64,000 bases of DNA, taken from assembly GCF_013315695.1 (NCBI RefSeq), contig NZ_CP054353.1, one strand, 5' to 3'. The DNA comes from Escherichia coli (GTDB lineage: Bacteria; Pseudomonadota; Gammaproteobacteria; Enterobacterales; Enterobacteriaceae). Position numbers and translations under genes: made by a program. How positions within the stretch are numbered: position 1 is the first letter of the stretch; each line of letters begins with the position of its first letter. Shown here piece after piece: positions 17,127 through 18,666 of the stretch. Under the pieces are notes generated by a model. The model searched no databases. It worked only from the letters and a program-made list of their open reading frames with translations, and was not told the DNA's origin.

Positions 17127-17147
17127 AATTATCCCAAGAAAAAACCA

Positions 17148-17158
17148 ACCATTACGGT
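17148..17158. repeat. 11-bp target-site duplication of IS4 (accattacggt); second copy at 18585..18595
   Basis: Identical 11-mer abuts both IS4 terminal inverted repeats. Confidence 0.85.
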
Positions 17159-18584
17159 TAATGCCAGTCAGTTAAGCAACTGACTGGCTCTTTTTCGGGG
17201 CTGTGGGGTATTTCCAGGGCCTCTCCTTTACCACTCTCGGGAAGGCCCTTTCCCTTCTTGTCGGTAATTTCACAAGTTGTCCCATACTTGCAAGATCGCG
17301 CATCAGCTCCGGTATACGTCCCGGTGAAGCGCCCTGCAATGTCATCAGCATTCTCATCACCATTCCGCATGATTCTGAGAAACTCAGTTGATTCGGCCAG
17401 TAACCTTTCAGATGTTCCGCCATTTTAATCATCTGATATCTCACCAGATTATAAGCCAGTAAGACACCCCACAGCTCTTGCTCCACAAGCTCCGGTTTTT
17501 TACTTCTCAGCGTCAGCCTGCTCAGTTGCATCGTCTGTTTTATCTCCCTGTATCCCAGTTCGATTTCCCAGCGATGACTGTACAGATCCGCCATTTCTCC
17601 TCCGGGGAAGCGCATGGCGTCCGTCATCGACGTCAGCAGATGGCAGACTTTTCCTTTGCGCGTCACGGTCAGCAGGCGGGCTGTCACTTCATTTCCCAGT
17701 CCCGGCCACTTTTTTCGTGCCTGCGGGCTGGTTTTCAGCTTCACCAGATGATCGCCTTTACCCAGTTTTCTGATCTCTTCATATTGCGCTCCCTTTCTGA
17801 GAGGTATCATCCAGTGGCGGTGTTCTCCCGCCAGGCTCCAGGCATTTAACAGTCCCAGTGAGTAATAACCTTTATCCATTAACGTCAGAGTGTTATCGCC
17901 GGTTTGTTCTATAAGTTGCTCAGCAAGCTCATTTTCGCTGTTCTTCATCGTGCCGAAGGCTGCAGCCGTCAGCAGATGGCTGGTCAGTTCCATCTGGCAG
18001 ACCATTTTGACCTGCGGGTAGAGCGCCGGGTTCCCGGCATGTGTCTGGCGGGGGAAGGCTGCATCGTTCTCTGGTGTATCCGGTGTGCGCCAGAACACAC
18101 CATCGATGGCCAGCAGGGTCAGGCCGCACCAGTGCGGATGCGGCGTGGCGTTATGCCAGAGCTGCGCTGTTTTCGTGAACACGCGGCGGACAGCCTCACT
18201 TCCCAGGCGCTGGCGGGCCTGAATAACGGCACTGGGGGCAACGAAGGGGCGATTGCCCGGCAGCATGATGTCCAGGCGATTCACAATCTGGTGAAGAGGT
18301 TCTTTACGCTCAAGCGCCATGCCAACAATACACCAGACCATCATTTCGAGGGGAAGACGGCGCTTGCGTAGCGTTACAGTACCTGATTCGGCAAGGCAAC
18401 GAGAGATGAGTTCGGGGTCGAGGTAATCCCCCAGAGAAGTCAGTGGGTTACGCAGAGAATCGTAACGGGATACCAGATCAAGAGCCTGTCCAATGTGCAT
18501 AAAAAAATCCGGAAACAAGTGAGCGTTTCCGGATTCTTACACAGCCACTGGATCGGTCAACTGATCCTTAACTGATCGGCATTA
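17159..18584 (-). mobile_element. IS4 insertion sequence, complete (1426 bp)
   Basis: 18-bp terminal inverted repeats taatgccagtcagttaag (17159..17176) and cttaactgatcggcatta (18567..18584); encodes IS4 transposase; flanked by 11-bp direct repeat. Confidence 0.92.
17172..18500 (-). CDS. insG: IS4 family DDE transposase InsG
   Basis: 442-aa product from [23 protein letters not shown]-track start at 18518 is an upstream extension. Confidence 0.92.
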
Positions 18585-18666
18585 ACCATTACGGTTGGTT
18601 TTTTTATATCTGCAATTATTTCGATAAACAGACCGTGACACATCACAGCCTGTTTATTTTCTGTTA

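Follow-up and report, generated by a model that had tools for sequence, protein, structure and literature searches.

Insertion of a transposable element into the terminator of a tRNA gene raises the question of where the transcripts from the flanking genes now end and what brought the element to that particular site. We addressed this question for a 64,000-nucleotide stretch of Escherichia coli DNA (contig NZ_CP054353.1; hereafter, the window), in which an IS4 element lies immediately downstream of proL, the gene for tRNA-Pro(GGG). A preliminary description of the locus had recognized a complete 1426-bp IS4 with 18-bp terminal inverted repeats, located 32 bp past the proL 3' end and flanked by an 11-bp target duplication, and had proposed that the insertion splits the proL terminator, so that proL transcription may read into the element. 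The anatomy of the locus is as follows (all coordinates are window positions).

15215..16975, plus strand: yejM (lapC/pbgA) coding sequence, the upstream neighbor, unaffected (open reading frame; annotated as yejM in the identical locus L004)
17050..17126, plus strand: proL, tRNA-Pro(GGG), intact, same sequence as K-12 proL (ARAGORN; Rfam tRNA)
17127..17158, plus strand: proL 3' trailer and left half of the split terminator, comprising an A-run (17139-17144), 5' arm CCAACC (17145-17150), loop ATTAC (17151-17155) and GGT (17156-17158) (sequence)
17148..17158: target-site duplication, left copy, ACCATTACGGT, 11 bp
17159..18584, minus strand: IS4, complete, 1426 bp, with IRL at 17159-17176 and IRR at 18567-18584 (K-12 IS4 annotation)
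17163..17195, plus strand: terminator-like element at the IS4 left end, inward-facing (terminator scan; fold; conservation in relatives)
17172..18500, minus strand: IS4 transposase gene, 442 aa from ATG 18500 (open reading frame; Pfam; NCBIfam)
18501..18538, minus strand: hairpin followed by U7, inward-facing, directly before the transposase AUG (inverted repeat; fold; 7/7 relatives)
18533..18560, minus strand: sigma-70-like candidate transposase promoter, TTGACC, 16 nt, TG-AAGAAT (consensus scan 9/12, a match at chance frequency for the region)
18585..18595: target-site duplication, right copy, ACCATTACGGT, 11 bp
18581..18605, plus strand: right half of the split terminator, outward-facing residual (folds)
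18667..21258, minus strand: yejO autotransporter coding sequence, intact, 863 aa, converging on proL (open reading frame; annotation of L004)

Identity and Boundaries of the Element

The element is IS4 (ISfinder IS4; IS4 family, IS4 subgroup), and its length, its distance from proL and its flanking duplication were all confirmed. The terminal repeats, TAATGCCAGTCAGTTAAG and TAATGCCGATCAGTTAAG, are of the TAATGCC... type and span 18 bp as described; they are imperfect, matching at 16 of the 18 positions. The exact flanking repeat scans as 13 nt, because the first T and the last A of IS4 extend the 11-bp duplication by chance. The transposase is encoded by a single open reading frame with the Pfam domains Nterm_IS4 (7.6e-33) and DDE_Tnp_1 (1.1e-31) and scores 304.5 bits against the NCBIfam model transpos_IS4_1 (cutoff 115); the YREK motif and DDE spacing of IS4 would be expected from the near-identity to the reference element. 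In some copies, RefSeq places the transposase start at TTG 18518; in IS4 haplotype C, the middle base of this codon is changed (TCG), and RefSeq gives those copies 442 aa. Misassembly was considered and ruled out, as both junctions agree at 100% between two assemblies and the copies of the duplication match exactly. Across the 6.4 kb compared, the window differs from L004 at one position.

Copies of IS4 in hundreds of genomes match the window element at 100% identity, and the annotated K-12 copy (insG, MG1655 4502090-4503515; 1422/1426 identical) differs from it at 4 of the 1426 positions. The two elements share their length, ends, single DDE transposase and an 11-13-bp duplication, and differ in location alone: the K-12 copy sits between yjgZ and nanX, at a GAAA-N20-TTTG site without a hairpin, whereas the window copy lies in the proL/yejO terminator. 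The statement in the preliminary description that K-12 carries IS4 elsewhere was correct, the proL site of MG1655 being empty. At 20 of the 21 other IS4 loci, the duplication is 11-13 bp long, the remaining one (L015) having about 14 bp with one mismatch.

The Restored Site and the Original Terminator

Excision of IS4 together with one copy of the duplication restores the stem-loop and T-run that had been anticipated, AAAAAACCAACC-ATTAC-GGTTGGTTTTTTT, which folds into a 13-pair stem (-16.1 kcal/mol; z = -5.6) followed by a T-run in either direction (T7, plus strand; T6, minus strand). Comparison with an empty allele, also proposed in the preliminary description, substantiates this reconstruction: NZ_OZ546925.1 is empty at this site and 100% identical to the 400-bp restored sequence. 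The restored site differs by one loop base from the K-12 proL terminator, which has a 12-bp stem with 4 G-C pairs and was shown experimentally, by northern blot and cloning, to end a primary transcript of ~120 nt (PMC5291269). The terminator featured in the work on RNase E-dependent 3' maturation of proline tRNAs (PMC5291269, PMC8860583), in which RNase E cleaves proL right after the CCA and PNPase serves as back-up (PMC5291269), is the same one that is split here by IS4.

The insertion does split this terminator, cutting the hairpin at its center. The duplication had been thought to span the loop and the 3' arm, but instead covers the 5-nt loop and, to either side of it, 3 nt of the adjoining arm; thus, the staggered cuts were symmetric about the hairpin dyad. 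The hairpin lies between the convergent proL and yejO genes. Bordered by an A-run and, at the opposite side, a T-run, it is, by sequence, a bidirectional terminator common to both genes, so that the yejO terminator would be lost as well. The hairpin common with proL was the only terminator-like one found for yejO. In K-12, yejO is annotated as a pseudogene disrupted by IS5K. As had been noted, the transposase gene is convergent on proL, with the IS4 open reading frame on the minus strand and proL on the plus strand; transcription from yejO enters IS4 in the transposase sense direction.

Little of the original structure persists on the proL side of the element, where a 4-bp stub lacking the T-run is left at the junction, and the fold of the 49-nt trailer (-2.6 kcal/mol) is not more stable than those of shuffled sequences. 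At the right junction, the terminal ATTA of IS4 helps re-form a 7-pair hairpin, AUUAACC/GGUUGGU, followed by the original T-run, and a mirror image of this residual hairpin lies on the minus strand at the left junction.

Target Preference of IS4

The number of IS4 places overall is 5482, and target preference was judged on sampled loci. The unbiased sample consisted of 12 loci recovered with an IS4-only query, with flanks disregarded, and representing 8 distinct sites; L001-L003 were left out of the count as top BLAST matches owing to their query-like flanks. An A-run and a T-run located ~9-14 nt on either side of the duplication center (A/T arms) were found at seven of the eight sites, compared to 0.36% of window positions (P about 6e-17). 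The window site carries AAAAAA at -14..-9 and TTTTTT at +9..+14, and the K-12 site has such arms as well (GAAA-N20-TTTG). IS4 relatives from Klebsiella and Aeromonas are likewise inserted in sites with an A-run, a hairpin and a T-run. Most of the sampled IS4 sites are terminators; a hairpin as the sole recognized feature is ruled out, since the ygeA and K-12 sites display A/T arms without a stem. It follows that the arms rather than terminators are targeted, that is, the apparent terminator targeting by IS4 is really A/T-arm targeting. The transposase favors targets with an A-run ~9-14 nt from the insertion center and, over the same range of distances in the opposite direction, a T-run. Bidirectional intrinsic terminators are the commonest genomic source of this pattern, which in our reading brought IS4 to the proL/yejO terminator and makes it a recurrent hotspot.

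An AAA-N20-TTT target consensus for IS4 was reportedly described by Mayaux et al. in Gene in 1984; 7 of the 8 sampled sites conform to it, as do those of the window and of K-12. The same authors are said to have analyzed IS4 in the pheST attenuator terminator, a hairpin with A/T runs, accompanied by an 11-13-bp duplication. The pheST insertion reportedly lifted attenuation in front of structural genes, altering their expression, whereas the window IS4 is located where two convergent transcription units end. Strong arm specificity is mentioned for the IS4 subgroup (PMC2266710), and De Palmenaer et al. are cited in favor of an IS4 target preference. In the literature searched, PMC98933 included, no explicit IS4 target consensus or statement on IS4 in terminators was found, and PMC9208149 and PMC1525189 contain nothing on IS4 and terminators. 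Palindrome-targeting insertion sequences, such as IS1397 and ISKpn1 in REP/BIME and ISRm22, of the IS4 family, in REPs (PMC1525189), favor extragenic palindromes and spare genes; however, these elements hit REP repeats, whereas the feature common to IS4 sites is the A-run/T-run arms, with the hairpin being dispensable.

Hairpins at the Ends of IS4

Both ends of IS4 contain an inward-facing hairpin followed by a U-run. The left-end hairpin begins 4 nt inside the element and faces proL, with its 5' arm located within IRL. It consists of a perfect 11-bp stem, GCCAGTCAGTT/AACTGACTGGC, with 6 G-C pairs and the loop AAGC, followed by TCTTTTT, was matched by the terminator scan, and is more stable than the lost proL stem (-18.7 kcal/mol, z = -4.8, vs -16.1 kcal/mol). 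The hairpin with T5-6 is present in four of the five relatives compared (Klebsiella, Aeromonas and Rahnella; only five sequences). In Rahnella, the stem contains two compensatory pairs (CCAGUCAG/CUGACUGG to CCGGUCAC/GUGACCGG); in ISAeme15, it is degenerate (-10.5 kcal/mol; poor T-run). Instead of termination, this conservation could reflect roles at the DNA level or at the mRNA 3' end, given that the 5' arm is part of the transposase-binding IRL.

The right-end hairpin reads, on the minus strand, AAGAAUCCGGAAAC-GCUCACUU-GUUUCCGGAUUUUUUU-AUG, faces yejO and folds at -18.8 to -23.5 kcal/mol. It is kept in all seven relatives (-15 to -20.6 kcal/mol), with a U5-7 run that stops 0-2 nt before the AUG, and shows two A-U to C-G compensatory changes (RNAalifold), one paired deletion and one wholly different stem. 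Hence, both end hairpins are conserved with compensatory changes down to relatives at 67% identity. Covariation among the E. coli IS4 copies was uninformative, with zero variant positions within either stem (the nearest, IS position 1359, falls on the base that opens the loop of the right-end hairpin), and was examined instead in IS4 relatives on plasmids. MAFFT mis-registers the right-end stems of Aeromonas and Rahnella; per-sequence folds and RNAalifold on five collinear sequences were used. The right-end hairpin was absent from the output of the terminator scan, probably because its stem, taken at full length, extends into the U-run.

The -10 element of the candidate transposase promoter overlaps the 5' arm of the right-end hairpin, so that native transposase transcripts would lack that arm; RNA from 18527 downward folds at 0 kcal/mol. 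In IS10 and IS50, fold-back inhibition protects the element from outside transcription by means of an inverted repeat close to where the transposase gene begins. The repeat forms only in read-in transcripts, the element's own promoter being located within or after the first arm, which would match the layout predicted for IS4 at 18501-18560. Unlike in IS10 and IS50, the IS4 hairpin is directly followed by U7 and looks like a full intrinsic terminator. Searches of the literature for experimental mapping of an IS4 read-in barrier found none.

Predicted Fate of the proL and yejO Transcripts

The best explanation for these observations appears to be that an intact IS4 moved by cut-and-paste into the center of the proL/yejO terminator, with an 11-bp staggered cut about the dyad, which would have destroyed the original terminator for both genes. 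With a conserved inward-facing hairpin and U-run at the IS4 left end, the primary proL transcript is predicted to end about 35-37 nt into the element, near 17191-17196, and would be ~150 nt rather than ~120 nt long. Transcripts of yejO are predicted to end, or to be translationally silenced, at the hairpin before the transposase AUG. Mature tRNA-Pro(GGG) should still form, because the RNase E site after the CCA, 32 nt upstream of the insertion, is untouched. IS4 probably supplies replacement terminators, and the consequence for the cell would be small. We assign a probability of roughly 0.8 to this account as a whole, i.e., a standard IS4, an arm-preferred bidirectional terminator and surrogate terminators at the ends of the element.

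The suggestion that proL transcription reads into IS4 accordingly has to be divided: it would hold for about 35 nt, whereas long readthrough is unlikely, judging from the left-end hairpin and T-run at which termination is predicted. The preliminary description had named a terminator-competent hairpin as the observation that would speak against its proposal, and what we find comes close to this; the hairpin, however, is one that IS4 brings along, not one retained from the target, and its function is predicted. A stronger version, in which proL termination is abolished and transcripts extend far into the element, antisense to the transposase mRNA, perturbing proL 3' processing and/or IS4 expression, derives some support from the truly split original terminator, with nothing but the short stub and the weakly folding trailer left at the junction. 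Furthermore, few G-C pairs have been linked to PNPase susceptibility (PMC5291269), and the new hairpin has 6 such pairs vs 4, so that PNPase back-up and clearance of terminator fragments could suffer. Nevertheless, a hairpin stronger than the lost stem, conserved with compensation, lies 4 nt inside IS4, and the RNase E site is unchanged, which makes this scenario unlikely, even if it deserves some consideration.

Recurrent Insertion at the proL Site

The proL site is occupied, with both junctions detected, in 8 of 5426 complete genomes, and RefSeq annotates an IS4 transposase there in all eight carriers. The occupied genomes, which include two clonal pairs (AF3 and MSB1_4I; HR5-1 and HR12-1), represent four flank alleles, three IS4 haplotypes and two duplication lengths, indicating at least five independent IS4 insertions. 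The alternative of a single ancestral insertion, inherited or spread by homologous recombination, as opposed to a hotspot, might be invoked to explain why all eight genomes carry IS4 in the same orientation at nearly the same point, but conflicts with several observations. The two copies of the duplication share the loop allele of the strain that carries them (ATTAC, CTTAC or TTTAC), which under a single origin would require parallel mutations; the duplication is 12 bp in L007 and 11 bp in the others; the IS4 haplotypes differ at 4-12 positions, and two of them occur in the nearly identical flanks of L005 and L006; and for all four flank alleles, the restored site exists elsewhere as an exact empty site (100% over 400 bp). 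We therefore consider a single origin very improbable.

Selection of the insertion for an effect on a neighbor, such as yejO expression or the supply of tRNA-Pro(GGG), could be suspected from the repeated insertion, always in one orientation, with yejO reading into the transposase sense strand. The shared orientation of all five events (two-sided probability about 0.125) is unexplained by a symmetric model; at the typA/yihL site, IS4 was found in both orientations. However, the occupied site is confined to the 8 genomes of 5426, in unrelated backgrounds and without signs of spreading, many other terminators are occupied by this element as well, and IS4 brings its own predicted barriers at both ends. 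In addition, proM reads all four CCN codons, making proL dispensable. Such selection thus seems a highly doubtful cause, and independent arm-directed insertions remain the preferred explanation.

Significance

The window contains a textbook IS4 at a site type of known preference and carries little weight for general biology. It provides a clean natural example of recurrent, independent insertion of IS4 into one terminator, with exact empty alleles, and a natural test case in which proL, matured by RNase E/PNPase in an unusual single step, faces a different, stronger predicted terminator. For annotators, the presence of IS4 in a terminator does not by itself amount to a regulatory event. The conserved hairpin and U-run that IS4 carries at each end may be what makes insertions into terminators tolerable, a testable proposal. 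More tentatively, and with the odds somewhat against it, the elements of the IS4 subgroup might be specialized terminator replacers that combine arm homing, inward terminators and TAA...TTA termini that re-form outward residual hairpins. If so, host transcription-unit boundaries would be preserved, the transposase would be shielded from read-in and insertions would be nearly neutral, which would explain the recurrent proL/yejO and typA/yihL insertions as well as the 15-30 copies found in some lineages.

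IS4 in the proL terminator

A complete IS4 element begins 32 nt after the CCA of the tRNA gene proL, as the preliminary description had stated, with position, length and duplication all in agreement. The arrangement of the locus is as follows:

15215-16975, plus strand, yejM
17050-17126, plus strand, proL, tRNA-Pro(GGG)
17159-18584, IS4 element, 1426 bp
18667-21258, minus strand, intact yejO

The element is bordered by the target duplication ACCATTACGGT (17148-17158 and 18585-18595). The 18-bp terminal inverted repeats reported earlier are present, but they are imperfect: TAATGCCAGTCAGTTAAG and its inverse agree in 16 of the 18 positions. 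IS4 is found in 2686 of 5426 complete genomes; the copy in the window is 100% identical to annotated copies in many E. coli genomes and differs from the annotated IS4 of K-12 MG1655 at 4 of 1426 positions. Its minus-strand ORF of 442 aa contains the Pfam domains Nterm_IS4 and DDE_Tnp_1 and matches NCBIfam transpos_IS4_1 with a score well above the cutoff. In one IS4 sequence type, haplotype C (L003, a locus found by flank similarity, and the proL-site copies L006 and L007), an A>G change at IS4 position 1359 (window 18517) converts the TTG at 18518, the RefSeq transposase start in other copies, to TCG, and the protein is annotated as 442 rather than 448 aa. The true start is more likely to be the ATG at 18500.

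Among IS4-bearing genomes, the median number of IS4-matching places is 1 and the maximum 32-33, whereas NZ_OZ547117.1 and NZ_LR898874.1, from the lineage of the window, have 18 each, and this lineage has thus undergone an IS4 expansion. The intact yejO encodes an 863-aa autotransporter, the counterpart of which in K-12 MG1655 is a pseudogene split by IS5K. Three Rfam matches at gathering score, ordinary for this chromosomal region, were also present in the window:

13309-13334, L25 ribosomal-protein leader
44197-44290, MicF
47951-48027, naRNA4 (REP-derived nucleoid-associated RNA)

Deletion in silico of the element and one duplication copy restores AAAAAACCAACC-ATTAC-GGTTGGTTTTTTT, a 13-pair stem with a folding energy of -16.1 kcal/mol (z = -5.6). 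The comparison with empty sites proposed earlier yielded an exact allele: the restored 400-bp sequence is uninterrupted and 100% identical in NZ_OZ546925.1. The region lacks an interruption in at least 3781 genomes. The site is also empty in K-12 MG1655, where the tRNA is identical and the hairpin has a single loop difference (CTTAC). The K-12 hairpin, with a 12-bp stem, four G-C pairs and -15.3 kcal, is the Rho-independent terminator of the ~120-nt primary transcript of the monocistronic proL and is removed by an RNase E cut directly after the CCA, with PNPase as a back-up (Mohanty, Petree and Kushner; PMC5291269). Together, the fold of the restored site and the K-12 work bear out the identification of the hairpin as the proL terminator, and the structural interpretation put forward from the sequence was right. 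The duplication, described as the loop and 3' arm, in fact comprises the loop and 3 nt of each arm, so that the staggered cuts are symmetric about the hairpin dyad. Located between convergent genes, preceded by an A-run and followed by a T-run, the hairpin is by its sequence a putative bidirectional terminator that would serve yejO as well. In the empty-site comparison, the matches of NZ_CP122832.1 and NZ_CP074830.1 begin only at ~position 150 of the query, within the proL 3' part, and lie in two places, suggesting that an island or prophage has integrated at the 3' end of proL in these strains.

Recurrent insertion and target preference

Both proL junctions were found in 8 of the 5426 genomes, six of which were fetched (L004-L009). 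In all six, IS4 has the same orientation, with the transposase gene converging on proL. The duplications match the loop allele of each strain (ACCATTACGGT, ACCCTTACGGTT (12 bp) or ACCTTTACGGT), the proL trailer alleles vary, three IS4 haplotypes occupy the site, and each of the four restored alleles is matched at 100% identity by an empty site in other genomes. The flanks of strains 789 and GCUET01 are nearly identical, but their IS4 copies show differences at 12 positions. Five independent insertions are the most parsimonious count. Their uniform orientation, despite a nearly palindromic target, is weakly significant (~0.125, two-sided), and no sequence asymmetry explaining it was identified among L004-L009.

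The typA/yihL terminator, which accounts for 3 of 12 randomly sampled loci, is another recurrent hotspot, carrying IS4 in both orientations (L002 versus L017, L019 and L021), with duplication loop alleles that differ by orientation (GCCATTGCTGGC versus GCCAGCGATGGC, read in IS4 orientation).

Unexpectedly, BLAST matches to the junctions continued 24-37 nt past the ends of IS4 copies at other loci, and at the cspG/ymcF, typA/yihL and prophage loci IS4 likewise occupies the center of an A-run/hairpin/T-run. Because this set was chosen by flank similarity, a second sample was drawn with an IS4-only query, giving 12 loci at 8 distinct sites: feaB/tynA, tdk/adhE, raiA/bamD, ycaL/aroA, typA/yihL, two sites in mobile DNA and one within ygeA. 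When centered on the duplication, these sites have A-runs at approximately -14 to -9 and T-runs at +9 to +14. At least four A and at least four T in the respective hexamers were present in 7 of the 8 sites, compared with 0.36% of all restored-window positions (binomial P ~6e-17). The K-12 IS4 site (GAAA-N20-TTTG, duplication ATCTTGGTTCTG) and the ygeA site both have these arms without a hairpin, and hence the A/T arms, rather than the stem, look like the target determinant, terminators simply being the usual place for such arms. The Klebsiella and Aeromonas relatives occupy A-run/hairpin/T-run sites too, with duplications of 12 and 11 bp, respectively. Mayaux et al. in 1984 reportedly described IS4 in the pheST attenuator terminator and an AAA-N20-TTT consensus. 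The preference found here agrees with that consensus and with De Palmenaer et al.

At the raiA/bamD locus (L015, NZ_CP066806.1), the duplication copies, CAGCTCAAGGGCTG and CAGCTCAAGGACTG, contain one mismatch and would be ~14 bp long, compared with the usual 11-13 bp. Near-perfect A-run/hairpin/T-run sites without IS4 are also present in the window at ~13645-13695 and ~42700-42760 (restored positions 13669 and 41292); an example is AAAAAACCCCGCTCCGGCGGGGTTTTTTG, downstream of the L25 leader and rplY region.

Hairpins at the IS4 ends

All that remains at the left junction on the proL strand is a 4-bp stub without a T-run, and the original proL terminator is therefore lost. The terminator scan detected a hairpin at 17163-17195 on the same strand, GCCAGTCAGTT-AAGC-AACTGACTGGC followed by TCTTTTT, which starts four nt inside IS4, with the 5' arm within the left terminal repeat (IRL), and folds at -18.7 kcal/mol. 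Given this predicted terminator, the earlier suggestion that proL transcription may read into IS4 is probably wrong past ~35 nt. In addition, a 7-pair hairpin, adjoining the retained T-run and facing outward, is rebuilt at both junctions from the IS termini (TAA.../...TTA) and the duplicated half-site. The RNase E site after the CCA is unaffected, tRNA-Pro(GGG) is dispensable, since proM reads all four CCN codons, and the insertion is rare and scattered over unrelated backgrounds; for these reasons, the likeliest consequence would be that the proL precursor is slightly lengthened, with little further effect.

From the other side, yejO transcripts would enter IS4 in the transposase sense direction and reach a minus-strand hairpin, AAGAAUCCGGAAAC-GCUCACUU-GUUUCCGGAUUUUUUU, immediately ahead of the transposase AUG (-18.8 to -23.5 kcal/mol). 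A promoter-like sequence, TTGACC-16-TGxAAGAAT, identified by consensus match only, has its -10 element inside the 5' arm of this hairpin, so that transcripts from the predicted promoter would lack that arm and stay unfolded (0 kcal/mol). Such an arrangement is known from IS10 and IS50, where it guards against transcription entering from outside. The last 35 bp of the right end also contain three GATC (Dam) sites (18551-18554, 18563-18566 and 18574-18577), one in the right terminal repeat (IRR) and two bracketing the -35-like TTGACC. All three are kept in the Aeromonas, Rahnella and ISAeme15 relatives, which suggests, by analogy with IS10 and IS50, that the right end and promoter may be under Dam control.

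Since the stems are invariant among E. coli copies, relatives from plasmids were fetched: Klebsiella (89% identity), Yersinia (83%), Aeromonas (68%), Rahnella (67%), ISAeme15 and a Pantoea right-end remnant. The right-end hairpin with its flanking A-run and U-run ends 0-2 nt ahead of the AUG in 7 of 7 sequences (-15 to -20.6 kcal/mol). Compensated changes convert GGAAAC/GUUUCC to GGCAAC/GUUGCC in Pantoea and to GGAACC/GGUUCC in ISAeme15; the Aeromonas stem is shorter by one base pair, lost from both arms, and the Rahnella stem is entirely different. RNAalifold on the five collinear right-end sequences yielded 15 pairs, two of them with changes on both sides. Four of five relatives retain the left-end hairpin with T5-6, the Rahnella copy showing two compensatory pairs; in ISAeme15 this hairpin is degenerate. 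This pattern supports selected structures at both IS4 ends, termination itself being predicted.

Two plasmid loci have unusual architectures. In Pantoea vagans pPag3 (L029, ~1760-1884), genes for an OsmC-family protein and an ABC permease flank a lone IS4-like right end, made up of an IRR-like sequence, a promoter region, a hairpin and an ATG, which has no transposase gene and is a remnant or MITE-like derivative. The IS4-like element of Yersinia enterocolitica pYVe8081 (L025, ~300-385) has no normal left end; directly next to its transposase 3' region is part of a second right end, comprising the hairpin, the promoter region and an IRR-like sequence, on the same strand as the true right end.

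Overall, the IS4 described here is a known element in a site of a known preferred kind; the repeated use of the proL terminator and the conservation of the hairpins at the IS4 ends add modestly to this.
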